Part shown: positions 1,819 to 61,115 of the stretch, piece by piece
How the letters are laid out: every line of letters begins with the position of its first letter
Position numbering within the stretch: the stretch's first letter is position 1
Notes under the pieces: generated by a model
Database searches by the model: none
The model's input: the letters and a program-made list of their open reading frames with translations, nothing else
What the model was told of the DNA's origin: nothing
Assembly: GCA_036785375.1 (NCBI GenBank)
Contig: JAWMAR010000252.1
Location: 2,232,001 to 2,296,000, forward strand
From: Leucoraja ocellata
Taxonomy: Eukaryota
Reading direction: 5' to 3'
DNA: 64,000 bases
Translations under genes and position numbers: made by a program

Positions 1819-1967
1819 CCAAACCCATGTATCCCGGGCTGTGTCTGCCCTGACGGTTTGGTGGAAGATTCCAGTGGCGGATGCATTGCACCATCTCAGT
1901 GTCCTTGTGTATTTGGAGGTGAAACCTTTGGGCCTGGAGAAACAATCAAAAGGGACTGCAATAAGTG
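1819..1967 (+). CDS. Mucin exon, TIL/E module
   Basis: aag|CCA...TG|gtgag; [50 protein letters not shown]. Confidence 0.92.
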
Positions 1968-4900
1968 GTGAGCTTAGACAAATGTCAAACAAAATAACAG
2001 CCCTTAACTGTATAGAATTGTAGATATTATTATATCTTCTCTATTGTAGCACATGCAAAATTGGCACATGGGAATGTACCAATGATCCATGTCCAAAGAC
2101 ATGCCATGTTTATGGAGATGGACATTACATCACCTTTGATGGAAAGCGATACACTTTTGATGGTAACTGTGAATATATCTTTGTTGAGGTAAGATTGAGA
2201 ACGTCACATTCAATGTGCATTTTTTGTCTTTTTCCTTTAGTTGTAAACATATATGATAATACTTAAATTCAAAATCTTTACATTCTTTCTAAGTTTAGGC
2301 AGACATGCAAAAGATTATTTTTAATTGATATAATGATTGTAATCAGTATTTAAAATATTTTACTGAAGTATTTATTAAAAATTTCTCTAAAGCATAACTT
2401 GTTCATTTGAAATGGGTCGGTCCTAGCAACTACTTTTGACATTTGGTCGGCCTTTGGTTGTTGTTATTGATGGCTGTTGGAGGAGAGGGAGTAATACATG
2501 TGTGTAACTGGAATTGTTCACACATTTGCTTGTTCAATCTCTCAAAGAATTTCAGACTTCAAAATTATGATAGATGGCATTCTAAACATGAAGCAGCATA
2601 TTAGATTGCATGTTTAAAAGTCAAAATTGTCTCAGACACAATCAGCAAGAATGGTTTTGAGTGTAATCTGAAATCTCTGATATAGCTTCTGAGATATAAA
2701 TGAGAAGGTAACAATGAACAAAATGTATTAATCAGATTAAATGATCTGAGATTCTATAGTATGAATAGTTCTTCAGCAAACCAAAAATGCTTTTGAAAGT
2801 GTCAACTATCACTTGGCGCTAAGGGTTTCAAGAGCTGTTATTATGACCTTGTCTTTTCCCCTTCCTTTGTCCTTATATTTTCTTGAGCTCAGAGGATAAT
2901 GAAAATATATATAAATCTTGATGAACTATAAATTATACTGGAATTATTGAGCTGGCTCTGCCATGTCAGATTATGATAGGTTAAAATTATGCTGCACAAA
3001 ATTATTCAAGTTATCTTAATTTTAGGACGGATGTGTGCGAGAGATTGGCACATTCCAAATACTGACCGAGAGTGTTCCCTGCTGTGAAAATGGAGTGACA
3101 TGTTCAAGAAACATCAGAATCATATTTGAGGTATATGCGCTTTGATTTATTACAATTAGAATGCGTAAGATGGCGTTTTAAAATAAAGCATCCAAATGGA
3201 TCCTTGCAATGATTTAATTTAGTTTATTCAGCATGTTATAAATCAATGTATTTTCAAATATATTCTTATAGGATAAAGAAATAATTCTGTTGAGTGGAAA
3301 TAGAGTGAGTGAAGTATCCCTTGGCAAAAACCAGTGCACGGAAAATTTATATACAATTCACAACGTTGGACTTTACTTAGTCATAACATTTTCCAATGGG
3401 ATAACTGTGATATGGGACAAAAATACAAGATTTTCAATCACATTAGACCCCAGATGGAAGGTATGTATGATTTTAAATTAAAATGTTTCCTTAATTTCTG
3501 TATATTGATAGAGAAAACATAATGAGAAATTGTAAAACAAAACTTGTGTGGCATAATTCATATGAGAAACATGGAAGTGGTGTGAAAAATGTTTAACTAA
3601 ATGTACGTAGACAATTGAGCTGTAGATGGGATGGACAACACAGAATTTGAAAATAAATGATGGACACATTCCCCGAGCAATGCAGCATTGGATTCAAAAT
3701 AAATGAGATGAAACTATGGTTTTTCATTTATTATTGGGCTCATTATCAGCTATTCAACTTTAAGAAACGGCTGAACAATAACCGACAATTCTTTGTATAA
3801 GGACAATATTAAATAGTACTTTGAAGCATTGCCAGCAGTTTAATAAGAATTGTGAAACGGGTAGGGAGCTGCATTAATTAACAATAGAGGAAAACTGGCA
3901 CAAAATAACTATGGAGAACGGAGTTGAGCACAGATGTCCACAAAATTCTTAAAAGGTGCACTAGAATGGAAAAGATGTGAGGGGCAATGGTTATTATGGT
4001 CATTCTTCCATTATGTTAAAATTCAGATGCAGCCCTAGGCCTTGGTTGCACAAAATTAAGTATTGCACATTTTATCTTCACGTCAGCTTGATAGGTCTAT
4101 CACATAATTGAGGGAGGCTCGAATTAGAGATTTATTGACACTGTGGTGACACACTAACACTCTAGCAGATCTCTTACATGTGGTGGTAGGAGGAAATGAG
4201 AAGGAAGAGAAGGGAAGGGATCAGAATGGTGCTATTATGCAAGGGAAGGTTGAGACGAGCAGATGAAGGGTTGACAGAGTCCAGTAAATCAGCTGAGAAG
4301 GGATCATTGTGATGGGGAGAGGAGGGGGGGGGGGGGGTGATAGGGGGTGATAGGTGCAGATTAATGGGTCAGGGTATTAGTGGAGATCGACATTGGGTAG
4401 TACATTAAATTCGACAGGTTTTAAGTCATTATCTGACTTTCATGCAGCTCTCCTGGAATTTCAAAATGGTAAAGAGGGCGTTGCCTTATTGATTAAGGAG
4501 AATGTCACGGCATTAGTCTGAGATGACATTACTGACAGTTCAAAAAACTATATGAAGCTTTATATGAAATGATAAATCACTTAAATGAAAGCAAAAATAT
4601 GAAAGCAAGAGGAATTGTTTTAAAATTACCCTTTTGATGCCATCTATTTTCTAGAGTTTGCAAGTACTGTATATATTTAAAGACAACAGTTCACATACAG
4701 ATTTTGAATTCGAATTTATGAGGTTGACATTTCATTCAAAGGATGGCTTGATGCTTTGAGAAGTTAAACAGTGAAGTAGAAATGTGTACAATGTCTGTAT
4801 ACATGGTAAAGATCACGAGGATTCAAAGCCAAGAGTTTGTTGAAAATAAGGAAGATAAAATATAATTGGATCAGTTAATAGTCTTGAATTATTCTTCATT

Positions 4901-7900
4901 TTAAATTATACATTTAGCAGTTTAATTTTCTTTTATATACTTGTGCCAACTTTTATCATGAAAAGTTGTGACACTGAACTTATGGTGAAGGCCTTCAGCC
5001 AATAGATTAGTTAATCAATCCAGAACTGCCCCAAATCCCCATCTTGTATAATTTAGCAGTTTATTGAAAATAATTTGAATTTTCAACCATACTAATCCAT
5101 AGGTAATGAAGAGTGAAATAACTTGCTTTATATATTGCCATTCACAAACTAAATTATAACCTCTTTATAGCTAATGTCTTTGGTTCTGGTTGTGATGTAA
5201 AACCCTCCTGATGCTTCGCTCTCTCTATGATTGCGTTTATTTTTGGAGTAGACAAAAGCTGTGCTTCTGAAGCGAGGAACACTGAAAATTATGTAAAAGA
5301 TCAACGACTAGGTCAAAAATTAACAAATTAAATAATTGTAATGATTTAATTGATTAATTGTGTTTGTATGGTGCCAAACTGGATCTCAAGAAGAGGCTAG
5401 GTGGTTTATTGCAATGAAAGATTGATAATTCTGACATTTGTATTGGGTTAACTTGGAAAAAGTAGGACATTTGAATTGTGAATTTAGAATAGTAACCATT
5501 ATTTTGCTTTTTTTACACACATAAGAATAAAGTTTGTGGCCTTTGTGGAAATTTCAATGAAAACATTGAAGACGACTTAACGACGAAGGGGAACTCCTTG
5601 GTGACCAGCTTTATGGCCTTTGGGAACAGTTGGAAGTCCATGCAGTCATGCTCTGACACAGTAAACGAAATATACCCATGTGATAACAATCCATATTGTT
5701 TAGCATGGGCTCAGAAGAGGTGCAGCATAATTACTGGCCCAGTCTTTCAAGCTTGTCATAAAATGGTAAGATGCCAGTTAAATTTGAAATTTAAATAGAA
5801 TCCATAATGCAATCATGATTTCTGACATTGTGGCTCTTTATCAGGTTAACCCAATCCCATTTTATGATGCTTGTGTCCAAGAAGCTTGTGTTTGTGATAT
5901 GGAGGGAAAATACCAGGGTTTATGTACTGCTATTGCTGTGTACGCAGAGGCTTGCAACAAAGCTGATGTTTGCATTCGCTGGAGAACCCCTGAATTCTGC
6001 CGTAAGTCTAAACTTCTGTATTCCTTGTAGAGAACAATTAAGGTATAAGAGCTCATCAACATACTTTTATAGATAGCAGAACACATTGATCCGCAGAGTA
6101 CCATAATTATTCAGATTGTTGTTCCAGATTCCCGCATCTGTAGACTCCTGTGTTCTCAAAGTCCAGATTGATGCTTGGTGCTGTTTAAAATCTGTGCCAT
6201 TTTGTAATTGCAATAAAGAAACCATATTTCCTTCTTCAATTCCATGTCTCTTTTGACACAAGATCCTGCATCTTCTACTTGGTTCAGTAAACAGTGCACA
6301 ATTAATTATCCGAAGGTATCCTCCAAACAGAATCAATGTTTCAAGAAGATTGGCCTTTATTGCCTTCCATCACAGTGAAGAATGTGGGGAATTCGCTGTG
6401 ATGGATGTTTATGTTAACTTTTATGTAGTTGTGTGTCTTATTGCTTTTTTAAAAATATGGTTGTATGGTAATTTGAATTTCACTGCACCTCAATTGGTAC
6501 ATGTGACAATAAACTGACCTTGATACCTTGATTCTGTTTGGAGGATACTCTCGGATAATTATTTGTGCACTGTTTACTGAATCACTTTTTGGCTCACGAT
6601 GGATAACATATCAAAACTGATTTTGATCCTTGCAATGAAAGGCAGGTCATTTTGATCCTTTCAATGAAAGGCAGGTTACTATCACTGTACACTTTTAATC
6701 CTTGATTCATCAAGCAAAATACATTCAGAACCTCACGCAGCAGAATATTCCAACACCTGCTAATCTGCAACAAATCCACAATATTTGTTTAATTAAATCT
6801 CGTCTGTTTGCTTATGAAGGAGATTTGTGGCTATTAATTTGAAGATGATGTTCTGCCAACATTCAGTCTCTATCCTCCAAGTTTGGCATATGCTTAAGAA
6901 TAAATGCACATAGCATTCCATCTATCAATGTTACTGTTGGTCCGCTTTATCTAAAAATATATACTTTGCAGGTTGATTGTATTGGTGCTCATGACAATCC
7001 TCCTTTACCTACTACATAAGTCAACTCATTTATCAACATGTATACTCTTTGGAATAGGAGAATAAATTTGTCCGAGTATCTGCCATGGTAAGGACAGATG
7101 TCTGAGAGTCCAACACTCCAGTTCACAGACCAATATCTATAAAATAAATATACAGTGACTGTTTGCTATGCAATATTGTGCTCATTTTGGGCAATGAATA
7201 ACCAAGCCAAAATCACAATTTGATTGTTTCTGTTATTCTCCAGCTGTATTCTGTGACTATTATAACAGTCTTGGTGACTGCAGTTGGCATTATCAGCCGT
7301 GTGGAACAACAACAACAAAAACTTGCACAAGGAAAAAGTACTCTGCAAGTCTAGAAGGTGCTGTTTAGAATTTATTCAAATATGTCACAATCATTTTACA
7401 ATTTTTTAAAACAATACTTTTAGGTTAGACTAAGTTTCAGTTCTTAAAAATAAAAATCATAATAATCAATTCATTATGGAATTCATTACACATTATACTC
7501 AGTTAAAGTATCAATATATTTTGATAAATCTTCATAAAAAAATCATGCTTATACTGTCATTCGTTGGAGATTTGTGCATATTTAGAATGGAGATACATTT
7601 TATTGGTGTCAAGATCTCCTGCATTTACAATATTCCTGTTTATCTTGATGGTAATTTTTACTTCTCACTATTTTAGGTTGCTATGCAAAGTGCCCAAATA
7701 ATGCACCTTACTTGGATGAAAATATTATGAAATGTGTTACACTACCACAGTGCACATGTTATAATGATGGGAGAATATTACAACCTGGTCAAACAACAAT
7801 AAGTGATTGTGAAGAATGGTAAAGTAGCCACATCAGTAAATGTATTGATCACTGTTCTAATATTGAAAGAAAAAACAAATTAAATGCCAAAAAACTGGGT

Positions 7901-10900
7901 TTTACAAATATTTCCTTAAAAATGCCATAAATAATTTTTGAGCTTTAAATAGTGAAATTAGCTATTTTAATAATTGAAATATAAAATGCAGTCTAGGATA
8001 ATTTCACACCTGAACAAAGGCCAAAATAATTGTTTTCAAATTCCTTCCCACCCACCACCCTCCCTCACCTACTTCAGTGACTTTCATCTACAGTTTGCAG
8101 TTATATTCATTTTCTGTTCCTTCAACAAAAAGTTCTTCATTTTCTTTATTCTCTCTGTCCAACAATAATCAGTGACTATTCTATCTGAGAGTCCATCCCT
8201 TAATAATTATTCTTCATTGTTACACTATATTGTAATATTTATTGTGAATTATGAACATTAAGTGAAGGCTATTGCTCCTTTAAAGGTTAACTCCCCCATG
8301 AGTTGCAACAATAAAGTGCAGGTGGTCTGTGATTACCCATGAATAAACCAACACAATTTATTAAAGCTTCTTATGTCTCATTCTGCTATTAGTAAAGAAT
8401 CTATTACCTTGACCATACATTGCCTCCATTACATTTTTAAATCATCCTGTGGACCTTGGTTTTTGGTGGAGATTTCAGAGCTAACAGAGATTTTACCTTT
8501 CCAATTCTTGCTTTGTATCTATTTGTTGTCCATCTTTCCAGAGAGGTTCAACCATTGTAACACAATATGTCTTTAGACTAGTTTGTAGTTCTTTAGTTTG
8601 TTTTATTTGTAACATCTTTCTTTTTGTTGACAGTACATGCCATCATGGAATCACTACTTGCGAAAGTAAGTAATAACTTTCAGCATTCATCTGTTAAAGG
8701 AATGCAGTATTGTTTTGCGATAAAGGAGAATGTTTGCTTATTTGCAGTGCAATATTAAAAGTATCAGCAGTTGTAGTTATATCTTCAGTTTAAATATTTC
8801 CAAAACATTACTTTTCAAATGCCAGATGTGAAAAATTAGCACATCTGTAGATGTTGGTGAGAGTTGTTGAGGACATGCCAAACTTGCTAAGCCTTCTGAG
8901 GAAGAAGAGGCATTGGTGTGCTTTCATGGCCTTTGCTTCGATACGGCTAGTTCAGGACAAGGTTCTGGTGATATTTACTGCTAGGAACTTGAAGCTTTTC
9001 AACCATCTCTATTTTGGCAGTGTCAATGTATGCGTAGCATTTCGGTGCTGTCTCCTCCCATCCCCCCGCCCTCGGGCTCCTCCTCCTCCCCTTTTTCCTT
9101 CCTTCTCCCCTCCCACCCCCCATCAGTCTGAAGAAGGGTTTCGGCCCGAAACGTTGCCTATTTTCTTCGCTCCATAGATGCTGCTGCACCCACTGAGTTT
9201 CTCCAGCAATTTTGTGTACCTTCGATCATCCAGCATCTGCAGTTCCTTCTTGAACACTATGTGTAGCACTTCACCTGAATTCGGAAGTTGATCACTATCT
9301 CCTTTGTCTTGTTGACATTGAGAGAAAGATTATTAACGTGACACCAGGTTACAAGGTTCTCAATGTCCTTCCTGTACTCTGTCTCATCATTATTTGGTAT
9401 CCATGCCACTACGGTGGTGTCACCCATGAATTTGTAAATTGAGTTTGATTTGTACGAGGCTGCACAATCGTGGTGAATAAGCAGTAATGAAGGGGGCTGA
9501 GAACACATTCTTGTGGAGGACCCATATTGGGGATTATTGTAGAGGGTGATTTGTCACCCACAACTTGTACTGAAGTTATAGCAGAGCTAAGAAACACTCA
9601 TGCATGCAGGCAAAATGTACCCAACAAAGATGACCCCTGCATTATAGAGTGATTGCATTTGCTGTAATCGTGATTTTCTGCAATGCAATCTCCTTTTCCT
9701 CTTGAATCCCATGTCATAAGAGAATGTTTTGCTCTCATTTTAAACCAATTTATCAGTGATGACAAGAGAAGCCACCATTCTTATTTAACATTTGAGACCA
9801 ACATTAGACCCAGATGAAACAACAAGTTTCATCAATTTTTAATAACTCAAAATTGTTTGGCAATAAGATTTGAACACTAGTCATTTTGTTGATTGGGTAA
9901 GGAGTCCCAGCTGAGCCACCCACCTTTGAATTGCTCCTTCCAGTCCTATTGTAGCGGCAAATTATCATATATTTCAGGTAATTAGCACGCTAGCCGCTAA
10001 ATGGATGAGAATGGTTGAAGGGGGTGTCTTCGAAACACATGCGAGCTCACTCACAGAGTCCTTCAGAGCATCTTCATAGATATGGATTCAAAACACAGTT
10101 GTTTGATGAGTAAATGCTTTATTGCTGATAGAAAACAGTAAGATACATCCAAATTTCTTACGACTCGTTACTACAATCTTCATTGAACTCCAGCTTATTA
10201 CCTTAAACATTAGAAAACTCCTTGTGTCTCCGTAACACTGGCATGATTTGGCATGTGGCCCGCATGGTAGAAGGGTTAACCTTCCCCATCGTCTCTCCAA
10301 ACTAATCTAAAAACTAAACTTCTGCGCAAGCATCTAAGCTCCAACCACGCCCAAAAACACGTCATAAATCCCACCCACAACATAACGGGCAGTCTAAAAT
10401 TTAAAGGCATATGCCATCATCAATGACCTACAAAACAAGCCAAATGGCCACAACACCGATGATATGTGAACTGATGCCTCAGACCGTAGCACTGCCGGGC
10501 TCTTAATTTGTGAGTCGTACTGTCTGATGCACGGCTCACTGAACGTGAAAGGGGGTTTATTTGTGTTTATTTGGCAAAGGAATGGAGTGGGTTTATTTGG
10601 GAAAGGAATGGAATTCAAGCGTTGGGATTCATGGGAGAAAAGTGACATAGAAGGAATGGTGCTGTCAGTGTGGAGTTTGCTCACCTCCCTGTGACCACGT
10701 GGCTTTCCTCCGTGTCCTCCTACATCTCAAAGATGGTGGGTTAGTTGGTTCATTGGCCTCTGTAAGTTGCTCCTAATGTGTAGGGAACAAATGAAAAAGT
10801 GGGATAACATAGAACTAATGTTAATGGGTAATCGATGGTCAGCATGGACTCGGTGAGCCAAAATGCCTGTTTTCATGCTGTATCTTTAAACTAAACTAAT

Positions 10901-13900: not shown

Positions 13901-14230
13901 CAACTGAGACTACAACTGTCCCCACGACTACAACTGAGTCTACCACCAGTCCCACGACTGGTGAGTGATACCTTCTCCAGTAGTTGTTAACAGTCATTTT
14001 AAAAGAAGGACAATAATGTCCAAAGTATGCCCAGCTTGTGCTGGAATTTAACCAAATACAAATGTTGCTGCTGAATGTTGCGATGATTATAAATTTGCAA
14101 TGACTTTTGTTGAAGTTATTCCACAACATCTTTTAATTTCTGCAATATATGCTGATTTTGTTACTACTCTCTCAAACGTGCCTTACTTCAAGTTGAATAT
14201 AAAGGACATGTATGCATTTGTTTACAGAAG

Positions 14231-14277
<47 letters not shown>

Positions 14278-17200: not shown

Positions 17201-18489
17201 CAGGTAGCCAATATAAGCTCCATACAAACAGCACCTTATATCAGGGTTGAACTTGGATCTCTCAAGCTTTTAGGCAAAGATGAGACATAGCCTTTCACAG
17301 CAGTGGTCTTCCTTTATCTTATTTATCCTGGAGCTGCTACCTTTTTGCCATTTCCCTCTTGTCCACCAATTAATCTCTCCTGCATATATGGTATATCTTT
17401 TCACCATATACAGTACGTAGCATGTTTAAAGGTGATATGGTGAGGCAGCGCAACTACTCCAATAATGTCCTTCAATAACACGCCGAGACCAACCCATCAA
17501 AGTGGAAAGAATATCTGGTTGTTAAAATCATGCAATAGTTAGTGCACAGCTGCAGTCAGCTGCCTGATAAGTGACATCTCACGTTTGTGCTGTATGCTTT
17601 TTCCCCATTGTTCTGTTCTGCACTGGCAATTACTGTTTCCTTATCTGATACTTGAGGTTGTATCTTAGTTTAGATCAATCAACAGTTCCCCAAACATATT
17701 GTTATTATTCCCATTTTACTGGTCCCATTCCCATTTAAACTGTAATTTGGAAGATTAATTTTAATGCACAACCATGTTTCTCAAAGCTTGTTTTTTATAT
17801 TTATGTTTATATTTTCCACTCTGTATTGTTTTATACAAGTTTGCCTTATGTTTTCTTTCTTTACATTACAGTGCCAGTCTGTTTGGGTGTATGGTCTCCT
17901 TGGTCTAATAAGCATACACCATCAGCGTTATCTCCAGATGATTATGAATTGTTGAAACCATATGGCAATAAATTGTGCCCATTTTCTTCCGATGAAATTA
18001 CTAATATTGAGTGCCAATTTGCTGACCATCCTAATTGGCCACTAAGTGCATCGCCAGATCCTGTGACCTGCATTAAAGACATAGGATTGATCTGCACGTT
18101 CTCTGGAAATGCTACTCGCCAATTTTGTAGTGACTACAGAATTAGAGTGTGCTGCGAGCCAACTGAGACTACAACTGTCCCCACGACTACAACTGAGTCT
18201 ACCACCAGTCCCACGACTGGTGAGTGATACCTTCTCCAGTAGTTGTTAACAGTCATTTTAAAAGAAGGACAATAATGTCCAAAGTATGCCCAGCTTGTGC
18301 TGGAATTTAACCAAATACAAATGTTGCTGCTGAATGTTGCGATGATTATAAATTTGCAATGACTTTTGTTGAAGTTATTCCACAACATCTTTTAATTTCT
18401 GCAATATATGCTGATTTTGTTACTACTCTCTCAAACGTGCCTTACTTCAAGTTGAATATAAAGGACATGTATGCATTTGTTTACAGAAG

Positions 18490-18530
<41 letters not shown>

Positions 18531-22742: not shown

Positions 22743-22783
<41 letters not shown>

Positions 22784-26996: not shown

Positions 26997-27034
<38 letters not shown>

Positions 27035-31247: not shown

Positions 31248-31291
<44 letters not shown>

Positions 31292-35502: not shown

Positions 35503-35534
<32 letters not shown>

Positions 35535-50500: not shown

Positions 50501-53500
50501 TACTTGAGGTTGTATCTCAATTCAGATCAATCAACAGTTCCCCAAACATAATGTAATTATTCCCGTTTTACTGTTCCCATTTTCTTTTAAACTGTCATTT
50601 GGAAGATTCATTTTGATGCATAACCATGTTTCTCAAATCTTGTTTTTTAATATTTATGTTTATATTTTCCACTTTGTATAGTTTAATTAAAAAAAAAATC
50701 TTATGTTTTCTTTCTTTTCCATTACAGTGCCAGACTGTTTGGGTGTATGGTCTCATTGGCATAATAAAAATACACCGTCAGCGTCATCTCCACATGATTA
50801 TGAATTGTTGAAAACATATGGCCATACATTTTGCCCATCTTCTTCCGATGAAATTACTAATATTCAGTGCCAAATTGCCAACCATCCTGCCTGGCCACTA
50901 AGTGTATCGTCAGATCTTGTGACCTGCAATAAAGACATAGGTTTGATCTGCACGTTCTCTGGAAATCCTTTTGGCAACTTTTGTCATGACTACAGAATTA
51001 GAGTTTGCTGCGTGCCAACTGAGACTACAACTGTCCCCATGACTACAACTGAGTCTACAACCAGTCCCACAACTGGTGAGTACTTGTGAACAGTCATTTT
51101 AAAGGAAGGACAACAATGTCTAAAGTATGCCCAACTTGTGCTAGAATTGAACCAAATACAAATGTTATTGCTGAATGTCACGATGATTATAAATTTACAG
51201 TGAATTTTGACCATATTTCAGTACAATTTCTGTCAGTATGTCCTTTGCAAGATGGGAAGTAATTAAGGGTGTTTATTTCCACTTTACACAATCTCTTTTG
51301 TAATTGGGAAATATCTGCTGAATTTGCCGGTCATTCATAATCTTGTATTCAAGATGGATGAATTAATTGTCCGTGAACTATTTTTTCTTTTGAAGAAACA
51401 TCTACAACAACCAGCACAACTGAGCCCACAACCACTTCCACAACTGGTGAGTAATGATATTATCAAGAATCATTTGCGATTCATTTTAATACAGTACAAG
51501 CCTCTGCCAGAGTACATATGCACCTACCGATTATCTATGCATGTACAGATCATTTTGCTTCCAAATAAATGTAATTCATTTATTATTTTCCATTTTTTTT
51601 AAATACCACGGTGACACCAAGCACCACCACCTCCACAGCAGGGGAGTGAATGCCTCTGTCAGTATGTTATTACCAACCATTAGGTTCAGACATTTTTCTT
51701 AACCGAATGGTTTTAATTGCAGAAGAAACAACAACAACAACAACAACAACAACAGAGACAACCACAACTGAGTCTACCACCAGTCCCACAACTGGTGAGT
51801 GACACCATCTCCAGTAATTTTTAACAGTCATTTTAAAGGACCGACAACAATGTCCAAAGTATGCCCAGCTTGTGCTGGAGTTGCACCACATACAAAAGTT
51901 ACTACTGAATGCCGTGTTGATTATAAATTTGCAGCGGCTTTTGTTGAAATTATTCCACAACTTCTTTTAATTTATGTAATATATGCTGATTTTTTTACTA
52001 CTCTCTCAAATGTGCCTTTCTTCAAGTTGAATATAAAGGGCATGTATGCATTTGTTTACAGAAGAAACAACAACAACAACAGCCACGACCACAACAGAAT
52101 CTACCACCAGTCCTACAACTGGTAAGTGATAACTTCTTTTGCTCACAATGGCAGCTACTTTTATCCTCATGCGGGAATTTGAACTCATTTCTTTATAAGA
52201 AAATGATAGGTAACTTCTTTATTTGGGCTTAGGGGAGGTTGTTTGGCCCATTGGGTCCTTTTCAACTTCCAACAGTACAATGTCATGTCCACTGCTTATT
52301 TCCCTGTAACTCTACAACATATTCTCTCTCACATCCACTCTCCTTTGATTCTTTTGGTATTGGTCTATACAAAGGGATAATTTACAATAGCCAATTAATC
52401 TACCAGTATGTCTCTGGGTGACAGGAGGAACCCAAGGAAGTATAGGTAACCATACAAACAGCACCTTATATCAGGATTGAACTTGGATCTCTCAAGCGAA
52501 CAGGCAAAGGCGAGGCACAGCCTTCCACAGCTTATTGAGAGTGGTCTTCTTTTCGTTATAACCTCTTTCCTGCTTTAACTCTTGATTCTGTTTTATGAAT
52601 TGACAGCCAAAGTGTTCCTTTATCATATATTATCCTGGAGCAGCTACCTTTTTGCCATTTCCCTCTTGCCCACCAATTAATTTCTTCTGCATATATGGTG
52701 TATATTTTCACCATATACAGTACGTAGCATGTTTAAAGGTGATATGGTGAGGCAGCGCAACTACTCCAATAATGTTCTTCAATAACACGCTGAGACCAAC
52801 CCATCAAAGTGGAAAGAATATCTGGCTGTTAAAATCATGCTATAGTTAGTGCACAGCTGCAGTCAGCTGCCTGATAAGTGACCACACATTTGTGCTTTAT
52901 GCTTTATCCCCATTGTTCTGTTCTGCACTGACAATTACTGTTTCCCTATCTAATACTTGAGGTTGTATCTCAATTCAGATCAATCAACAGTTCCCCAAAC
53001 ATAATGTAATTATTCCCGTTTTACTGTTCCCATTTTCTTTTAAACTGTCATTTGGAAGATTCATTTTGATGCACAACCATGTTTCTCAAATCTTGTTATT
53101 TAATATTTATGTTTATATTTTCCACTTTGTATAGTTTAATAAAAATGTTTTCTTATGTTTTCTTTCTTTTCCATTACAGTACCAGACTGTTTGGGTGTAT
53201 GGTCTCATTGGCATAATAAAAATACACCATCAGCGTCATCTCCACATGATTATGAATTGTTGAAAACATATGGCCATACATTTTGCCCATCTTCTTCCGA
53301 TGAAATTACTAATATTCAGTGCCAAATTGCCAACCATCCTGACTGGCCACTAAGTGTATCGTCAGATCTTGTGACCTGCAATAAAGACATAGGTTTGATC
53401 TGCACGTTCTCTGGAAATCCTTTTGGCAACTTTTGTCATGACTACAGAATTAGAGTTTGCTGCGTGCCAACTGAGACTACAACTGTCCCCATGACTACAA

Positions 53501-56500
53501 CTGAGTCTACAACCAGTCCCACAACTGGTGAGTACATGTGAACAGTCATTTTAAAGGAAGGACAACAATGTCCGAAGTATGCCCAACTTGTGCTAGAATT
53601 GAACCAAATACAAATGTTACTGCTGAATGTCACGATGATTATAAATTTGCAGTGAATTTTGACCATATTTCAGTACAATTTCTGTCAGTATGTCCTTTGC
53701 AAGATGGGAAGTAATTAAGGGTGTTTATTTCCACTTTACACAATCTCTTTTGTAATTGGGAAATATCTGCTGAATTTGCCGGTCATTCATAATCTTGTAT
53801 TCAAGATGGATGAATTAATTGTCCATGAACTTGTTTTTCTTTTGAAGAAACATCTACAACAACCAGCACAACTGAGCCCACAACCACTTCCACAACTGGT
53901 GAGTAATGATATTATCAAGAATCATTTGCGATTCATTTTAATACAGTACACGCCTCTGCCAGAGTACATATGCACATACTGATTATCTGTGGATATACAG
54001 ATCATTTTGATTCTAAATAAATGTAATTCATTTATTATTTTCCTTTTTTTATTAAATACCATGGTGACACCAAACACCACCACCTCCACCTCCACAGCAG
54101 GGGAGTGAATGCCTCTGTCAGTATGTTATTATCAACCATTAGGTTCAGACATTTTTCTTAACCGAATGGTTTTAATTGCAGAAGAAACAACAACAACAAC
54201 AACAACAACAGAGACAACCACAACTGAGTCTACCACCAGTCCCACAACTGGTGAGTGACACCATCTCCAGTAATTTTTAACAGTCATTTTAAAGGACCGA
54301 CAACAATGTCCAAAGTATGCCCAGCTTGTGCTGGAGTTGCACCACATACAAAAGTTACTACTGAATGCCGTGTTGATTATAAATTTGCAGCGGCTTTTGT
54401 TGAAATTATTCCACAACTTCTTTTAATTTATGTAATATATGCTGATTTTTTTACTACTCTCTCAAATGTGCCTTTCCTCAAGTTGAATATAAAGGGCATG
54501 TATGCATTTGTTTACAGAAGAAACAACAACAACAACAGCCACGACCACAACAGAATCTACCACCAGTCCTACAACTGGTAAGTGATAACTTCTTTTGCTC
54601 ACAATGGCAGCTACTTTTATCCTCATGCGGGAATTTGAACTCATTTCTTTATAAGAAAATGATAGGTAACTTCTTTATTTGGGCTTAGGGGAGTTTGTTT
54701 GGCCCATTGGGTCCTTTTCAACTTCCAACAGTACAATGTCATGTCCACTGCTTATTTCCCTGTAACTCTACAACATATTCTCTCTCACATCCACTCTCCT
54801 TTGATTCTTTTGGTATTGGTCTATACAAAGGGATAATTTACAATAGCCAATTAATCTACCAATATGTCTCTGGGTGACAGGAGGAACCCAAGGAAGTATA
54901 GGTAACCATACAAACAGCACCTTATATCAGGATTGAACTTGGATCTCTCAAGCGAACAGGCAAAGGCGAGGCACAGCCTTCCACAGCTTATTGAGAGTGG
55001 TCTTCTTTTCGTTATAATCTCTTTCCTGCTTTAACTCTTGATTCTGTTTTATGAATTGACAGCCAAAGTGTTCCTTTATCATATATTATCCTGGAGCAGC
55101 TACCTTTTTGCCATTTCCCTCTTGCCCACCAATTAATTTCTTCTGCATATATGGTGTATATTTTCACCATATACAGTACGTAACATGTTTAAAGGTGATA
55201 TGGTGAGGCAGCGCAACTACTCCAATAATGTTCTTCAATAACACGCTGAGACTAACCCATCAAAGTGGAAAGAATATCTGGCTGTTAAAATCATGCTATA
55301 GTTAGTGCACAGCTGCAGTCAGCTGCCTGATAAGTGACCACACATTTGTGCTTTATGCTTTATCCCCATTGTTCTGTTCTGCACTGACAATTACTGTTTC
55401 CCTATCTAATACTTGAGGTTGTATCTCAATTCAGATCAATCAACAGTTCCCCAAACATAATGTAATTATTCCCGTTTTACTGTTCCCATTTTCTTTTAAA
55501 CTGTCATTTGGAAGATTCATTTTGATGCACAACCATGTTTCTCAAATCTTGTTTTTTAATATTTATGTTTATATTTTCCACTTTGTATAGTTCAATACAA
55601 TTTTTTTCTTATGTTTTCTTTCTTTTCCATTACAGTGCCAGACTGTTTGGGTGTATGGTCTCATTGGCATAATAAAAATACACCATCAGCGTCATCTCCA
55701 CATGATTATGAATTGTTGAAAACATATGGCCATACATTTTGCCCATCTTCTTCCGATGAAATTACTAATATTCAGTGCCAAATTGCCAACCATCCAGACT
55801 GGCCACTAAGTGTATCGTCAGATCTTGTGACCTGCAATAAAGACATAGGTTTGATCTGCACGTTCTCTGGAAATCCTTTTGGCAACTTTTGTCATGACTA
55901 CAGAATTAGAGTTTGCTGCGTGCCAACTGAGACTACAACTGTCCCCATGACTACAACTGAGTCTACAACCAGTCCCACAACTGGTGAGTACTTGTGAACA
56001 GTCATTTTAAAGGAAGGACGCCAATGTCCAAAGTATGCCCAACTTGTGCTAGAATTGAACCAAATACAAATGTTACTGCTGAATGTCACGATGATTATAA
56101 ATTTGCAGTGAATTTTGACCATATTTCAGTACAATTTCTGTCAGTATGTCCTTTGCAAGATGGGAAGTAATTAAGGGTGTTTATTTCCACTTTACACAAT
56201 CTCTTTTGTAATTGGGAAATATCTGCTGAATTTGCCGGTCATTCATAATCTTGTATTCAAGATGGATGAATTAATTGTCCATGAACTTGTTTTTCTTTTG
56301 AAGAAACATCTACAACAACCAGCACAACTGAGCCCACAACCACTTCCACAACTGGTGAGTAATGATATTATCAAGAATCATTTGCGATTCATTTTAATAC
56401 AGTACACGCCTCTGCCAAAGTACATATGCACATACTGATTATCTATGCATATACAGATCATTTTGCTTCTAAATAAATGTAATTCATTTATTATTTTCCA

Positions 56501-59087
56501 TTTTTTTTTTAATACCATGGTGACACCAAACACCACCACCTCCACAGCAGGGGAGTGAATGCCTCTGTCAGTATGTTATTACCAACCATTAGGTTCAGAC
56601 ATTTTTCTTAACCGAATGGTTTTAATTGCAGAAGAAACAACAACAACAACAACAACAACAACAGAGACAACCACAACTGAGTCTACCACCAGTCCCACAA
56701 CTGGTGAGTGACACCATCTCCAGTAATTTTTAACAGTCATTTTATAGGACCGACAACAATGTCCAAAGTATGCCCAGCTTGTGCTGGAGTTGCACCACAT
56801 ACAAAAGTTACTACTGAATGCCGTGTTGATTATAAATTTGCAGCGGCTTTTGTTGAAATTATTCCACAACTTCTTTTAATTTATGTAATATATGCTGATT
56901 TTTTTACTACTCTCTCAAATGTGCCTTTCTTCACGTTGAATATAAAGGGCATGTATGCATTTGTTTACAGAAGAAACAACAACAACAACAGCCACGACCA
57001 CAACAGAATCTACCACCAGTCCTACAACTGGTAAGTGATAACTTCTTTTGCTCACAATGGCAGCTACTTTTATCCTCATGCGGGAATTTGAACTCATTTC
57101 TTTATAAGAAAATGATAGGTAACTTCTTTATTTGGGCTTAGGGGAGGTTGTTTGGCCCATTGGGTCCTTTTCAACTTCCAACAGTACAATGTCATGTCCA
57201 CTGCTTATTTCCCTGTAACTCTACAACATATTCTCTCTCACATCCACTCTCCTTTGATTCTTTTGGTATTGGTCTATACAAAGGGATAATTTACAATAGC
57301 CAATTAATCTACCAGTATGTCTCTGGGTGACAGGAGGAACCCAAGGAAGTATAGGTAACCATACAAACAGCACCTTATATCAGGATTGAACTTGGATCTC
57401 TCAAGCGAACAGGCAAAGGCGAGGCACAGCCTTCCACAGCTTATTGAGAGTGGTCTTCTTTTCGTTATAATCTCTTTCCTGCTTTAACTCTTGATTCTGT
57501 TTTATGAATTGACAGCCAAAGTGTTCCTTTATCATATATTATCCTGGAGCAGCTACCTTTTTGCCATTTCCCTCTTGCCCACCAATTAATTTCTTCTGCA
57601 TATATGGTGTATATTTTCACCATATACAGTACGTAGCATGTTTAAAGGTGATATGGTGAGGCAGCGCAACTACTCCAATAATGTTCTTCAATAACACGCT
57701 GAGACCAACCCATCAAAGTGGAAAGAATATCTGGCTGTTAAAATCATGCTATAGTTAGTGCACAGCTGCAGTCAGCTGCCTGATAAGTGACCACACATTT
57801 GTGCTTTATGCTTTATCCCCATTGTTCTGTTCTGCACTGACAATTACTGTTTCCCTATCTAATACTTGAGGTTGTATCTCAATTCAGATCAATCAACAGT
57901 TCCCCAAACATAATGTAATTATTCCCGTTTTATTGTTCCCATTTTCTTTTAAACTGTCATTTGGAAGATTCATTTTGATGCACAACCATGTTTCTCAAAT
58001 CTTGTTTTTTAATATTTATGTTTATATTTTCCACTTTGTATAGTTTAATAAAAATGTTTTCTTATGTTTTCTTTCTTTTCCATTACAGTACCAGACTGTT
58101 TGGGTGTATGGTCTCATTGGCATAATAAAAATACACCATCAGTGTCATCTCCACATGATTATGAATTGTTGAAAACATATGGCCATACATTTTGCCCATC
58201 TTCTTCCGATGAAATTACTAATATTCAGTGCCAATTTGCCGACCATCCTGAATGGCCACTAAGTGTATCGTCAGATCTTGTGACCTGCAATAAAGACATA
58301 GGTTTGATCTGCACGTTCTCTGGAAATCCTTTTGGCAACTTTTGTCATGACTACAGAATTAGAGTTTGCTGCGTGCCAACTGAGACTACAACTGTCCCCA
58401 TGACTACAACTGAGTCTACAACCAGTCCCACAACTGGTGAGTACTTGTGAACAGTCATTTTAAAGGAAGGACACCAATGTCCAAAGTATGCCCAACTTGT
58501 GCTAGAATTGAACCAAATACAAATGTTACTGCTGAATGTCACGATGATTATAAATTTGCAGTGAATTTTGACCATATTTCAGTACAATTTCTGTTAGTAT
58601 GTCCTTTGCAAGATGGGAAGTAATTAAGGGTGTTTATTTCCACTTTACACAATCTCTTTTGTAATTGGGAAATATCTGCTGAATTTGCCGGTCATTCATA
58701 ATCTTGTATTCAAGATGGATGAATTAATTGTCCATGAACTTGTTTTTCTTTTGAAGAAACATCTACAACAACCAGCACAACTGAGCCCACAACCACTTCC
58801 ACAACTGGTGAGTAATGATATTATCAAGAATCATTTGCGATTCATTTTAATACAGTACACGCCTCTGCCAGAGTACATATGCACATGCTGATTATCTATG
58901 CATATACAGATCATTTTGCTTCTAAATAAATGTAATTCATTTATTATTTTCCATTTTTTTTAAAATACCATGGTGACACCAAACACCACCACCTCCACAG
59001 CAGGGGAGTGAATGCCTCTGTCAGTATGTTATTACCAACCATTAGGTTCAGACATTTTTCTTAACCGAATGGTTTTAATTGCAGAAG

Positions 59088-59119
<32 letters not shown>

Positions 59120-61115
59120 GAGACAACCACAACTGAGTCTACCACCAGTCCCACAACTGGTGAGTGACACCATCTCCAGTAATTTTTAACAGTCATTTTA
59201 AAGGACCGACAACAATGTCCAAAGTATGCCCAGCTTGTGCTGGAGTTGCACCACATACAAAAGTTACTACTGAATGCCGTGTTGATTATAAATTTGCAGC
59301 GGCTTTTGTTGAAATTATTCCACAACTTCTTTTAATTTATGTAATATATGCTGATTTTTTTACTACTCTCTCAAATGTGCCTTTCTTCAAGTTGAATATA
59401 AAGGGCATGTATGCATTTGTTTACAGAAGAAACAACAACAACAGCCACGACCACCACAGAATCTACTACCACTCCTACAACTGGTAAGTGATAACTTCTC
59501 TCAATGTACACTCATGTTTTTTTTTAATTACAACAAAAAGTGACAGCAGTATATCTTGTGGCCAATGGCAAAGAACAGAACAATCTCTCCACTGCTCTGA
59601 ATAATAACAATAATTACAATAACATTTCACAGGAAATGTTTTTTAGCTGTATAGTTTATTCACTGAAGATATGAATAAGTATGTCACGGTGTTCCCTACA
59701 TTTCAGTTGAATAAAAAGGACATGTATGCATTTGTTTACAGAAGAAACTACAGTCCCTGAAGAATGCTTCTGTGATTCAGATCCACCAAGAAGGGTAATT
59801 GTTTCACCCAATTGGGCAGATTTGATGTGGTAGTAAATTTACACTGGAAACTTTGCCTTTAAAATGTTGCCTTTAATTTACCTAATATCTTATTGTAGTT
59901 ATCAGAATGAATTGCAATTTGTAATGGCAATGTCTAGGCTTTGCCTAAGGCTTTATGACACACTTTACATCCTCAACATTCTATTGAACTCTGAGCTGAA
60001 TTTCCAACCATATTTCTTCATGTCAATAAAGCACTACCTTCTGAAACTAATATCATTACACATCTCTTCACCTATTTCACTATGTTGCCCCCAAACCTTT
60101 CATATACTCTTCTGCTTCTCCAGAGTTGACTCTTCCATTATTTATCCACTTGGCCTTGTGTTCTTCCATTGAATTTTGCTTCTAGCTTCTGCTTCTAATA
60201 TCCTAGCCTATGCCACTTTGGGTTCATCCAACACCTTTATGTAGTTTTACCCAAATTGTCTACCAATGTCTCAGTCTTAAAATTCTCACCCTCCCTGCCT
60301 CACCCCTCCATAATCTTAACCAGCACCGCAGGTGTTCAAAAACTCTGATCTCTCATTATTGACGGTTGGATTTTCATCCATCAAATAAACACAATTTTGG
60401 TTCTCCATACATTCCATCATAATAAGAGGCGTTTATGGTTCAGAGAAACCAACACGTGATGCCCTTTCATATTCAAATTGTTTAGTTGGAAACTAATGCA
60501 ACCAAACCACCCTAAAATATGCTTTTTCATATGCAGTAACATGCATAATTCAAACAACATGGAAAATGTGTAAGCTTTTGATGTATACATTTTTTGTCAT
60601 CGTTCCCTAGTGCAATGAAACATGGAAAGAGAACTGTGCAACCCTTACTTGTGTTAAAGACGAAATGTTCAAAATTGAACATGTTGCCTGTGCATTACCT
60701 GTGAAACCAAGATGTTACAATGGGTTAAAACCTGTCAGAGTTGAATCTCAAGATGGTTGCTGTTCAAAGTGGGATTGTGAATGTAAGAATTGATTCAGAT
60801 TCATCTTTCTTTTGCCAGTGGAAAAGTAATTTTCTTCATTTTTGTTTTTATTGTACATGACCTAAATGGATTTTTTTTTTAGATGATTGTCAGATATGGG
60901 GAGGACAACATTATCGTACCTTTGATGGGATATTCTATAACTTCTTTGAAAATTGTACACATATTCTCGTGCAAGAAATTATCCCAAAATACAATTTTAC
61001 GGTGATACTCGATAATTATTATTGCACATCATCAGCGGCTAAATCCTGTCAACAAACATTAATTATCCATTACCAAGGAAATGTCATATATTTAACAACC
61101 GGACATCAACCTAGT
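1819..61115 (+). CDS. Gel-forming mucin gene (multi-exon, partial at both ends): MUC19-like D3 assembly, 14 CysD + PTS cassettes, start of VWD4
   Basis: About 90 manually traced AG/GT-bounded exons with matching phases. They translate to TIL, VWD ([11 protein letters not shown]; VCGLCGNFN), C8, TIL, WxxW/CysD domains, Thr-rich PTS and a C-terminal VWD. The span includes introns. Confidence 0.95.
2050..2188 (+). CDS. Mucin exon, start of VWD3
   Basis: tag|C...GAG|gtaag; [46 protein letters not shown]. Confidence 0.95.
3026..3130 (+). CDS. Mucin exon, VWD3
   Basis: tag|GAC...GAG|gtata; [35 protein letters not shown]. Confidence 0.94.
3272..3460 (+). CDS. Mucin exon, VWD3
   Basis: tag|GAT...AAG|gtatg; [12 protein letters not shown]...[34 protein letters not shown]. 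Confidence 0.94.
4470..4545 (+). mobile_element. Short CR1 ORF2 endonuclease remnant
   Basis: Translates to about [14 protein letters not shown], resembling the GGVALxxK APE motif of CR1. Confidence 0.45.
5526..5765 (+). CDS. Mucin exon, VWD3 end / C8
   Basis: aag|AAT...ATG|gtaag; [22 protein letters not shown]...FGNSWK...[29 protein letters not shown]. Confidence 0.95.
5845..6001 (+). CDS. Mucin exon, C8 domain
   Basis: cag|GTT...C|gtaag; [52 protein letters not shown]. Confidence 0.95.
6345..6532 (+). mobile_element. Retroposon 3' tail (LINE/SINE-like)
   Basis: Ends in aatttcactgcacctcaattggtacatgtgacaataaactgaccttgataccttg, i.e. AATAAA followed by a short tandem tail. Confidence 0.45.
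6621..6678. repeat. 29-bp tandem duplication (2 copies)
   Basis: ttttgatccttgcaatgaaaggcaggtca / ttttgatcctttcaatgaaaggcaggtta. Confidence 0.85.
7244..7357 (+). CDS. Mucin exon, TIL3
   Basis: cag|CT...G|gtgct; (P)[37 protein letters not shown](G). Confidence 0.93.
7677..7818 (+). CDS. Mucin exon, TIL3/E3
   Basis: tag|GT...TG|gtaaa; (G)[47 protein letters not shown]. Confidence 0.94.
8634..8665 (+). CDS. Mucin micro-exon, end of E3
   Basis: cag|T...A|gtaag; (C)[10 protein letters not shown]. The phases fit both neighbours. Confidence 0.88.
8840..9570 (-). mobile_element. Rex/Babar-like LINE RT fragment, interrupted by a nested insertion at ~9040-9257
   Basis: Minus-strand ORFs read [43 protein letters not shown] and, past the insertion, IEMVE plus a [12 protein letters not shown]-like segment. 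Confidence 0.85.
9040..9257 (+). mobile_element. Penelope-derived pLTR / short retroposon with hammerhead-like core
   Basis: A pyrimidine tract, then gtctgaagaagggtttcggcccgaaacgttgcc...catagatgctgctgcaccc..tgagtttctccagca...gcatctgcagttcc. It is flanked by the near-direct repeat tatgcgtagca / tatgtgtagca. Confidence 0.75.
9950..10455 (-). mobile_element. Probable solo LTR (~506 bp)
   Basis: TG...CA ends with an imperfect inverted repeat (tgtagcggc...gccacaaca), 5-bp flanks cctat/ccgat, and AATAAA on the minus strand near 10120. Confidence 0.6.
10658..10899 (+). mobile_element. HE1/V-SINE-like element (5' truncated) with CR1-type tail
   Basis: gtgtggagtttg...ccctgtgaccacgtgg..., then ...atggtcagcatggactcggtgagccaaaatgcctgttttcatgctgtatc and a (taaac)n tail. 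Confidence 0.8.
11298..11390 (+). CDS. First PTS (Thr/Ser/Pro-rich) exon
   Basis: cag|GA...G|gtaag, 93 nt, phase 1-1; [30 protein letters not shown]. Confidence 0.9.
12020..12250 (+). mobile_element. Degenerate CR1 3' end
   Basis: Similar to 390-630: ...tttaaaagacgtttggatagg.cacctggat...gg..cctgtgctgtattgttct. Confidence 0.65.
13401..13691 (+). mobile_element. GC-rich TE fragment, Helitron-like 5' end, fused to the first CysD exon
   Basis: Begins TCTATATTACT (a TC start typical of Helitrons). Composition shifts abruptly to GC/CpG-rich, the sequence has no counterpart in the other array units, and it joins CysD sequence at 13692. The family call is tentative. Confidence 0.55.
13679..13960 (+). 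CDS. CysD exon A1, 5'-truncated, using a putative TE-derived acceptor
   Basis: ttcacacattctctgccag|AC...G|gtgagt, 282 nt in frame; (D)[13 protein letters not shown]...[11 protein letters not shown]... It lacks the WxxW segment. Confidence 0.6.
14228..16474 (+). CDS. PTS micro-exons, unit A1 (span includes introns)
   Basis: Exons: 14228-14317, 14905-14955, 15281-15331, 15453-15512, 15914-15970, 16430-16474. All are AG..GT, phase 1-1 and 3n. Examples are ETTT...[29 protein letters not shown] and [14 protein letters not shown]. Confidence 0.85.
15043..15255. mobile_element. Fold-back (inverted) Penelope-pLTR-derived insertion, present in all 7 A units
   Basis: 15043-15131 is approximately the reverse complement of 15134-15218. 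It belongs to the same family as 9125-9257 and is flanked by a duplicated aaacaaatg. Confidence 0.75.
16555..16830 (-). mobile_element. Retroposon fragment with (CAT)n end, possibly RTE-related; present in all A units
   Basis: GC-rich block beginning catcatcatcatcg, which is a (TGA)n tail on the minus strand. It is absent from B units. Confidence 0.45.
17110..17270 (-). mobile_element. HE1/V-SINE remnant (one copy per complete A and B unit)
   Basis: aatttacaatagccaattaatctaccagcatgtct...ctccatacaaacagcacc...gggttgaac is the reverse complement of the V-SINE core. Confidence 0.7.
17872..18219 (+). CDS. CysD (WxxW) exon A2
   Basis: acag|TG...G|gtgagt, 348 nt; [14 protein letters not shown]...[18 protein letters not shown]. 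Confidence 0.93.
18487..20727 (+). CDS. PTS micro-exons, unit A2 (span includes introns)
   Basis: 18487-18570, 19158-19208, 19534-19584, 19706-19765, 20167-20223, 20683-20727. Confidence 0.85.
22125..22472 (+). CDS. CysD exon A3
   Basis: As A2. Confidence 0.93.
22740..24980 (+). CDS. PTS micro-exons, unit A3 (span includes introns)
   Basis: 22740-22823, 23411-23461, 23787-23837, 23959-24018, 24420-24476, 24936-24980. Confidence 0.85.
26379..26726 (+). CDS. CysD exon A4
   Basis: As A2 (CPS, NAT variant). Confidence 0.93.
26994..29231 (+). CDS. PTS micro-exons, unit A4 (span includes introns)
   Basis: 26994-27074, 27662-27712, 28038-28088, 28210-28269, 28671-28727, 29187-29231. Confidence 0.85.
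30630..30977 (+). CDS. CysD exon A5
   Basis: As A2 (HPDWLL variant). Confidence 0.93.
31245..33486 (+). CDS. PTS micro-exons, unit A5 (span includes introns)
   Basis: 31245-31331, 31919-31969, 32296-32346, 32468-32527, 32929-32982, 33442-33486. Confidence 0.85.
34885..35232 (+). CDS. CysD exon A6
   Basis: As A2. Confidence 0.93.
35500..37731 (+). CDS. PTS micro-exons, unit A6 (span includes introns)
   Basis: 35500-35574, 36162-36212, 36538-36588, 36710-36769, 37171-37227, 37687-37731. Confidence 0.85.
39130..39477 (+). CDS. CysD exon A7
   Basis: As A2. Confidence 0.93.
39743..41971 (+). CDS. PTS micro-exons, unit A7 (span includes introns)
   Basis: 39743-39814, 40402-40452, 40778-40828, 40950-41009, 41411-41467, 41927-41971. 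Confidence 0.85.
43369..43716 (+). CDS. Chimeric CysD exon (A-type 5' part, B-type 3' part)
   Basis: [29 protein letters not shown] (A-type), then TYGHTLC...[19 protein letters not shown] (B-type). Confidence 0.93.
44037..44763 (+). CDS. PTS micro-exons, unit B1 (span includes introns)
   Basis: 44037-44087, 44365-44436, 44704-44763; phase 1-1, 3n. Confidence 0.85.
45822..46169 (+). CDS. CysD exon B2
   Basis: acag|TA...G|gtgagt, 348 nt; [14 protein letters not shown]...[13 protein letters not shown]. Confidence 0.93.
46490..47215 (+). CDS. PTS micro-exons, unit B2 (span includes introns)
   Basis: 46490-46540, 46817-46888, 47156-47215. Confidence 0.85.
48275..48622 (+). CDS. CysD exon B3
   Basis: As B2. 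Confidence 0.93.
48943..49668 (+). CDS. PTS micro-exons, unit B3 (span includes introns)
   Basis: 48943-48993, 49270-49341, 49609-49668. Confidence 0.85.
50728..51075 (+). CDS. CysD exon B4
   Basis: As B2. Confidence 0.93.
51396..52121 (+). CDS. PTS micro-exons, unit B4 (span includes introns)
   Basis: 51396-51446, 51723-51794, 52062-52121. Confidence 0.85.
53180..53527 (+). CDS. CysD exon B5
   Basis: As B2 (HPDW variant). Confidence 0.93.
53848..54577 (+). CDS. PTS micro-exons, unit B5 (span includes introns)
   Basis: 53848-53898, 54182-54250, 54518-54577. Confidence 0.85.
55636..55983 (+). CDS. CysD exon B6
   Basis: As B2 (HPDW variant). Confidence 0.93.
56304..57030 (+). CDS. PTS micro-exons, unit B6 (span includes introns)
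   Basis: 56304-56354, 56632-56703, 56971-57030. Confidence 0.85.
58089..58436 (+). CDS. CysD exon B7
   Basis: As B2 (FADHPEW variant). Confidence 0.93.
58757..59483 (+). CDS. PTS micro-exons, unit B7 (span includes introns)
   Basis: 58757-58807, 59085-59159, 59427-59483. Confidence 0.85.
59742..59794 (+). CDS. Linker exon leaving the PTS region
   Basis: acag|AA...AGG|gtaat; (E)[17 protein letters not shown]. Phase 1 to phase 0. Confidence 0.88.
60611..60782 (+). CDS. Cysteine-rich exon preceding VWD4
   Basis: tag|TGC...T|gtaag; [57 protein letters not shown]. Confidence 0.93.
60883..61115 (+). CDS. First exon of the C-terminal VWD4
   Basis: tag|AT...AGT|gtaag; (Y)[47 protein letters not shown]...[12 protein letters not shown]. 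Confidence 0.93.

Follow-up and report, generated by a model that had tools for sequence, protein, structure and literature searches.

A gel-forming mucin gene of probable MUC19 type with CysD domains and a fourth VWD domain in Leucoraja ocellata

The mucin gene

The window (the whole stretch of 64,000 nucleotides of Leucoraja ocellata DNA that was analysed) covers the middle of a single plus-strand gel-forming mucin gene, comprising the D'/D3 assembly, an array of CysD and PTS exons, and the start of D4 (Table 1). Eighty-eight GT-AG exons (the first 10, 62 PTS, 13 CysD, and a further 3) join into a product of 3,327 amino acids with zero stops; an additional PTS exon at 41411-41467, read by eye, stands outside this count. 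Between 1819 and 11390, the first ten exons have GT-AG borders and form a single open frame that runs through the end of D', VWD3, C8-3, TIL3, E3, and the first PTS exon; the middle 2,758 residues of the joined product are 36% Thr, 12% Ser, and 8% Pro. The gene extends beyond both ends of the range proposed in an earlier note on this DNA, with a D' exon already at 1819. D1, D2, and the C-terminus lie beyond the window; a relative from Rhinoraja (P0001) has D1-D2. A tblastn search of 61116-64000 returned no more D4 exons, and no neighbouring gene falls within the window.

All four D3 motifs that the earlier note had read as MUC19-type were found in one spliced frame, and ENVPCG and GGDCxCFC, which it had claimed to be absent, are both absent from the joined frame. 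Hyena MUC19 (P0289) has counterparts (ESVPCC, CDSNPYCKTWA, CDMEGKYLGFCTAVA, and LEGCYAKCPDSSPYLDEN), but the PYLDEN portion is not MUC19-specific, since hagfish and lamprey mucins have it too. The TIL3 exon is four residues (the HFIG stretch) shorter than in all close relatives shown and remains in frame. The exon at the 3' end of the gene portion passes the Pfam VWD model, in agreement with the VWD4 that had been proposed. The introns contain decayed, LINE-like frames (1-530, 1447-1810, 9260-9553, and 61724-62264), which presumably resemble LINE reverse-transcriptase fragments, and an old inverted repeat pair (12565-13219 and 3785-4440) retains 78% identity over 683 nt.

Table 1. Features of the mucin gene in the window.
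Feature	Coordinates	Strand	Remarks
Exon, TIL'/E' (end of D')	1819..1967	+	GT-AG, in frame; joined in a contig of run X17 with 0 differences
Exon, end of E' and start of VWD3	2050..2188	+	GT-AG frame; X17 contig
Exon, VWD3 with ESVPCC (3068-3085)	3026..3130	+	Clade-specific extra Cys 3083-3085
Exon, VWD3	3272..3460	+	Clade-specific loop Cys 3335-3337; X17 contig
Exon, end of VWD3 (CGLCG) and start of C8-3	5526..5765	+	Cys 5697-5699 replaces MUC2 R1043; X17 contig
Motif CDNNPYCxAWA	5679-5711		
Exon, C8-3	5845..6001	+	C1082-equivalent kept; C1088 and C1090 equivalents absent; X17 contig
15-residue motif	5893-5937		
Exon, TIL3	7244..7357	+	C1130-equivalent 7279-7281; same short form in X17 contig, no gap
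Motif LEGCYAKCPxxAPYLDEN	across 7357/7677 intron		
Exon, end of TIL3 and E3	7677..7818	+	E3 Cys 7808-7810, no obvious partner within E3; X17 contig
Exon, end of E3	8634..8665	+	GT-AG frame; matches P0001
First PTS exon	11298..11390	+	GT-AG frame; matches P0001
Array A	13693..43368	+	7 units of ~4.25 kb, each a CysD exon and 6 short phase-1 PTS exons
First CysD exon copy	13693..13960	+	Without first 80 nt and acceptor
Array B	43369..59483	+	7 units of ~2.45 kb, each a CysD exon and 3 short PTS exons
Chimeric CysD exon	43369..43716	+	A-type up to nt 66, mostly B-type from nt 87 on
Exon, end of PTS and start of VWC-like module preceding D4	59742..59794	+	Matches P0193
Exon, VWC-like module preceding VWD4	60611..60782	+	Matches relatives; no Pfam hit alone
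First VWD4 exon	60883..61115	+	Pfam VWD 53 bits; WGGQH where GDPH expected

The CysD/PTS array

The "many CysD domains" of the earlier note correspond to 14 CysD exon copies set in tandem multi-exon PTS cassettes, of which 13 are intact (348 nt) and one, at 13693, is truncated at its 5' end. Pfam Mucin2_WxxW matched all three of the copies scanned (50, 56, and 37 bits; cut-off 22.4), and the window CysD also matches the solved CysDs of MUC5B, MUC5AC, and MUC2; a single-sequence fold reached a pLDDT of only 40. Within either array, neighbouring units are 98.1-99.9% identical, introns included (99.4-99.9% for the full units of array A), and the A-type and B-type CysD exons share ~89% identity. 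The chimeric CysD exon at the junction of the two arrays has the pattern that would be expected from unequal crossover. Every array exon is phase 1-1 with a length divisible by three, so the reading frame survives skipping or duplication of these exons. Successive CysDs are spaced 177-232 residues apart, one spacing reading as 209 because the PTS exon at 41411-41467 is uncounted. Chicken MUC2 likewise has a multi-exon PTS/CysD region (PMC3549977).

Interspersed high-copy repeat DNA at 13119-13692 (depth ~34,000 in run X1) abuts the truncated first CysD exon; a small PTS exon, found ahead of CysD in the Rhinoraja ortholog, is missing here as well. A possible in-frame cryptic acceptor lies before the truncated exon at 13678/13679. 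No trace of the missing 5' part was detected in 11391-13690, and clear terminal repeats were not found for the inserted element beside this exon. Decayed PTS exon copies that have lost their splice sites occur within units of both arrays (44246-44290 in array B, 16049-16095 in array A, and equivalents), and AAC triplet runs in PTS exons (14232-14277 and equivalents) range from 8 to 15 copies by unit, altering the length of poly-Thr.

Transcript data

Run X17, assigned to RNA by guess, was taken as cDNA-like because its contigs are spliced. These contigs match the D3 exons marked in Table 1 with 0-3 differences and are joined at the predicted sites, including those of the short TIL3 exon, and they also contain GT-AG joints between CysD and PTS exons in either direction. 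Among the X17 contigs listed, none connects a CysD exon with D3 or with the first PTS exon, and no read or contig among those listed crosses 11390-13693. On 13959-17868, some X17 joints leave out PTS exons or change their order (13959 to 16429; 15969 back to 15280), which suggests either alternative splicing or a different array in that sample. Two RNA runs from 2026 (X22 and X24; other organisms, ~6% and 3% read) gave zero depth on the D3 exons and were counted neither for nor against transcription. A gene labelled muc19, paralog not specified, is a marker of dogfish skin mucosal cells (PMC13558645).

Family placement of the D3 assembly

For the D3 comparison, 289 proteins were gathered, and 130 more were added through a query with a stretch of hyena MUC19 (30 of these named); the resulting trees contain no true MUC6, OTOG, or VWF and are rooted on two coral proteins. 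In the tree of 61 chosen assemblies, the window falls with sharks and rays (100/99), and 34 of the 61 rows form one branch (100/99) that unites the window and other sharks and rays with mammalian, frog, caecilian, lungfish, bichir, paddlefish, and teleost MUC19. FastTree recovered the same MUC19 branch, comprising 114 rows, among 343 distinct near-complete D3s. A D3 grouping inside the MUC2 or MUC5 clades, which the earlier note had named, together with MUC2/5 cluster synteny, as what would count against a MUC19 affinity, was rejected by an AU test on 25 rows in which shark MUC19-type sequences were forced with MUC2/5 (p-AU 9.6e-11). The window D3 is 56-57% identical to three mammalian MUC19 versus 45-48% to MUC2/5; its nearest protein is the Rhinoraja model P0001 (95% over one exon, 91% over D3), and it is 78% identical to P0193 from Hypanus.

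The equivalents of MUC2 C1088 and C1090 are both missing in 114/114 rows of the clade and both kept in 224 of the 229 other rows. The corresponding window residues are Y and G, in a register verified against human MUC2, and PMC6739602 describes MUC19 as lacking both cysteines. Membership in the Muc19/spiggin clade, assessed on D3, is thus indicated by the tree and by the absence of these two residues. At the same time, CysD repeats within PTS and a fourth VWD, the plan of MUC2, MUC5AC, and MUC5B, occur in the same gene, as the earlier note had proposed, even though its D3 lies outside the MUC2/5 clade and does not keep the set of C1088, C1090, G1085-G1086-D1087, and R1043. The gene departs from the mammalian-type MUC19 layout (no CysD, no fourth VWD) on both points. 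An identity as MUC6, which is described with C1088 conserved and without a fourth VWD (PMC6739602, PMC4948705), was rejected, as C1088 is absent and VWD4 present in the window. In the D3 tree, five lamprey and hagfish mucins (P0336, P0356, P0329, P0362, and P0379) branch off as the sister group of the MUC19 clade (99/81, root weak); they mostly keep C1088/C1090 and may show the state that preceded the cysteine swap described below.

Distribution of the layout across vertebrates

The layout was surveyed with our own CysD and VWD profiles on models of the clade, many of the models that lack a domain being short. Both CysD and a VWD after D3 were found in 35 of 68 chondrichthyan MUC19-type models, representing 18 elasmobranch species by source names; the others have CysD only (7), D4 only (1), or neither (25), and the holocephalan models are truncated. 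Pfam confirmed CysD in P0219 and P0085 and missed the diverged CysDs of P0193, P0197, and P0230, which align well by eye. Outside the chondrichthyans, the reedfish mucin-19-like protein P0307 has a Pfam CysD (54 bits) and four VWDs, and CysD is present in bichir P0308. No CysD was found in 25 teleost and 15 sarcopterygian MUC19-type models, the mammalian rows being N-terminal fragments, so that its absence in mammals rests on the literature and on these fragments; D4 was found in 18/25 teleost and 2/15 sarcopterygian models (both lungfish). Uniqueness to the Leucoraja ocellata genome was therefore rejected, and the earlier view of the gene is corrected in that the layout is common to an entire family of paralogs in sharks and rays. 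Of the two origins that the earlier note had left open, an ancestral one is favoured by the reedfish, bichir, lungfish, and teleost members of the clade, and a lineage-specific one is less so.

Several MUC19-type paralogs share one contig in single species (five each in Pristis and Rhincodon; four each in Narcine, Heterodontus, and Chiloscyllium plagiosum), a pattern that suggests a tandem cluster. In lungfish, at least three (P0310, P0315, and P0321) lie on a single chromosome, two of them with D4, and three Muc19 paralogs have been reported for Callorhinchus (PMC4948705).

The closest relatives of the window gene are the Rhinoraja 'mucin-6-like' P0001, the Hypanus 'mucin-2-like' P0193, and the Leucoraja 'mucin-2-like' P0197, which have the same 8-cysteine CysD and fall in the same paralog group in three trees; the window D4 is 79% identical to that of P0193. 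These relatives, known only as database entries named after other families, contain 1-3 CysDs versus 13 intact copies in the window, whose TIL3 exon is also shorter. Chondrichthyan MUC19-type proteins in general appear under the source names mucin-2-like, 5AC-like, 6-like, 19-like, or uncharacterized. The reedfish and bichir mucin-19-like proteins (XP_051776840.1 and XP_039617047.1) combine a MUC19-type D3 with an 8-cysteine CysD, and the reedfish protein also with D4, but carry one CysD only. Mammalian MUC19/submaxillary apomucin belongs to the same D3 clade, lacks C1088/C1090, and has the same three added cysteines, yet unlike the window gene it is described without CysD and D4 (text of PMC4948705; Fig. 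1 legend of PMC11207715). Teleost spiggin/muc19, again in the same D3 clade, has PTS and a fourth VWD (PMC4948705); unlike the window gene, 0/25 carry CysD and most lack the VWD3-loop/E3 cysteine pair. MUC2, MUC5AC, and MUC5B share the D3-PTS/CysD-D4 plan and the TIL3 interface residues, but differ in keeping C1088/C1090 and R1043, in a 10-cysteine CysD, in a D4 mostly with GDPH, and in forming a separate clade.

Spiggin has been tied to Muc19 through synteny (PMC2180178), and a fourth VWD has already been reported in some spiggins, with CysD regarded as characteristic of MUC2/5 (PMC4948705). No description of CysD in a MUC19-clade gene or of the cysteine swap was found in the titles, abstract openings, and passages of the literature searched, which took in PMC4948705 apart from its domain drawings and one supplementary file; the portions of PMC11207715, PMC3549977, PMC9712336, PMC10707392, and PMC6346038 that were covered contain nothing about CysD in MUC19. 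The new part is apparently the presence of CysD in the MUC19 clade, the D4 half of the layout being already known.

Origin of the layout and alternative explanations

It is quite probable that the window holds a gel-forming mucin of the Muc19/spiggin clade with 13 intact CysDs and D4, in a layout that sharks, rays, and reedfish share and that likely represents the ancestral state of jawed-vertebrate MUC19; at a later stage, teleost and lobe-finned MUC19 would then likely have lost CysD, and tetrapod MUC19 D4. In a D4 tree of 37 rows, all 18 proteins with a MUC19-type D3 form one branch (99/97), and the window D4 adjoins the stingray ortholog that also neighbours the window in the D3 tree. Shark and bichir/reedfish MUC19 CysDs likewise form one branch (99/96) in a tree of 62 rows, with support dropping to 86/45 on 51 rows. 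Eight cysteines are present in 74/82 CysDs of the clade versus ten in 603/652 others; the hagfish CysD has eight as well. Given that CysD occurs in MUC2/5, in hagfish and lamprey mucins, and already in early bilaterian proteins (PMC4948705), ancestral presence followed by loss is the simplest reading. An unlikely alternative is that a gene with a MUC19-type D3 acquired CysD, and perhaps D4, later from MUC2/5, in chondrichthyans and in bichirs separately, through recombination or conversion. The AU tests leave room for such borrowing, as shark or bichir CysD (p 0.47 and 0.42) and shark D4 (p 0.066) may side with MUC2/5, and CysD is absent from the teleost and sarcopterygian models mentioned above. 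However, under borrowing the 8-cysteine form would have to have been gained twice, both times at one position before D4, neither the CysD nor the D4 group nests within a MUC2 or MUC5 subclade, and in Chiloscyllium plagiosum, C. punctatum, and Protopterus the contigs with MUC19-type models differ in length from those with MUC2/5-type models, which places the two kinds on separate chromosomes. This is a proxy for the separation of the MUC19 locus, beside SLC2A13/LRRK2, from the MUC6-2-5 cluster.

The truncated first CysD exon, the four-residue TIL3 deletion, and the loss of GDPH in D4 could also be taken as signs of a paralog that is transcribed while its function is being lost. This is very unlikely, considering that 88 exons are free of stops and frameshifts, that D3 remains 91% identical to P0001 on a short terminal branch, that spliced RNA exists (run X17), and that stingray, skate, and shark orthologs are also without GDPH. 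The same broken exon at the start of the array, together with the occurrence of the clade as tandem paralog sets and the lack of any listed read or contig spanning 11390-13693, is compatible with an assembly or annotation artefact in which the D3 of one tandem paralog was fused to the CysD/D4 of its neighbour or the array was mis-expanded. Yet D3, CysD, and D4 each group with the same orthologs (P0193, P0197, and P0001) in three trees, in P0001 itself D3 is followed by these PTS and CysD sequences, the D3 and D4 parts have no D1/D2 or cystine-knot exons between them, and the depth of the array in DNA run X1 is 46-61 versus 4-9 in unique bins (as a rough guide), making an artefact extremely unlikely. 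Next to impossible is a MUC2 or MUC5 gene whose divergent D3 converged on MUC19, for which the CysD and D4 layout and the labelling of many relatives as mucin-2-like or mucin-5AC-like would speak: it is refuted on D3 sequence by the AU test described above, five cysteine positions follow MUC19, and a separate shark MUC2/5-type protein exists (P0377).

The cysteine swap in D3 and a proposed mode of assembly

The D3 interface of the MUC19-clade gene is half conserved with respect to MUC2. The TIL3 half is kept (equivalents of C1130, P1114, F1120, D1122, Y1123, Y1124, N1125, and H1133), while the C8-3 half is changed (G1085 to E, D1087 to K, C1088 to Y, C1090 to G, and R1043 to C). The extra cysteine of PC[C] is present in 112/114 clade rows and 0/229 others, the cysteine at the R1043 position in 114/114 and 0/229, and the VWD3 loop cysteine in 78% of clade rows in one column; these swaps on the clade stem count as one event rather than as independent covariation. 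Of the 84 rows (out of 114) that could be parsed for the VWD3-loop and E3 cysteines, 69 have the two, 11 have neither, and 4 are discordant, which suggests that these cysteines are bonded to each other, although the joint losses are confined to teleosts and one bichir paralog and so amount to one or two events. We take the VWF 910-923 loop to correspond to the PCC loop, which is only roughly consistent with alignment offsets. This VWF loop is located at the D3 interface (PMC9507011), just as R1043 is at the interface of the MUC2 dimer (PMC6739602).

By analogy with MUC2 and VWF, the product would form tail-to-tail dimers through a cystine knot beyond the window (PMC7599080, PMC9507011, PMC3195396), and head-to-head D3-D3 disulfides could form through the retained C1130-equivalent. 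The PTS segments would serve as O-glycosylated spacers, with CysDs every 177-232 residues as putative non-covalent cross-links. As the C1088-equivalent is absent, the MUC2-type C1088 link cannot form. A pair between the VWD3 loop and E3 cysteines is predicted, and the PC[C] cysteine, the cysteine at the R1043 position, and the orphaned C1082-equivalent, being odd in number, would leave one free for an interchain bond: one intrachain bond is predicted among them, and the remaining cysteine is a candidate for a relocated second interchain bond. The MUC2-like analogy is weakened by the position of the first intact CysD, ~154 residues after D3; MUC2 CysD1, which is needed for filament assembly, lies ~40 residues past D3 (PMC7599080). 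The GDPH of D4 is absent in the window and in P0193, P0195, P0197, and P0198, and kept in 50 other MUC19-type models; where it is absent, self-cleavage is predicted not to occur. It is no more than tentatively proposed that MUC19 arose among the earliest jawed vertebrates as a full MUC2/5-style mucin equipped with D4 and an 8-cysteine CysD of its own, diversified into a multi-paralog family in sharks and rays, and relies for its polymerisation on a rewired D3 with a new VWD3-E3 staple and, in place of the C1088-C1088 bond, a new interchain disulfide near the two-fold axis.

Significance

Reviews treat CysD as a mark of MUC2 and MUC5 and describe MUC19 without CysD and D4. With the layout widespread in elasmobranch gene models and the window gene one of many, MUC19 lacking these domains would, if the reading favoured here is true, be a mammal-centred view, and the losses would be secondary. 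Many shark and ray entries named 'mucin-2-like', '5AC-like', or '6-like' would then be MUC19 paralogs, which would bear on the interpretation of elasmobranch mucus proteomes and transcriptomes. A testable model for the absence in MUC19 of one of the two D3 interface cysteines, an issue raised in PMC6739602, is offered by the clade-wide cysteine swap; should the proposed mode of assembly be true, it would explain how human MUC19 polymerises without C1088, and mammalian MUC19 would be a reduced form.
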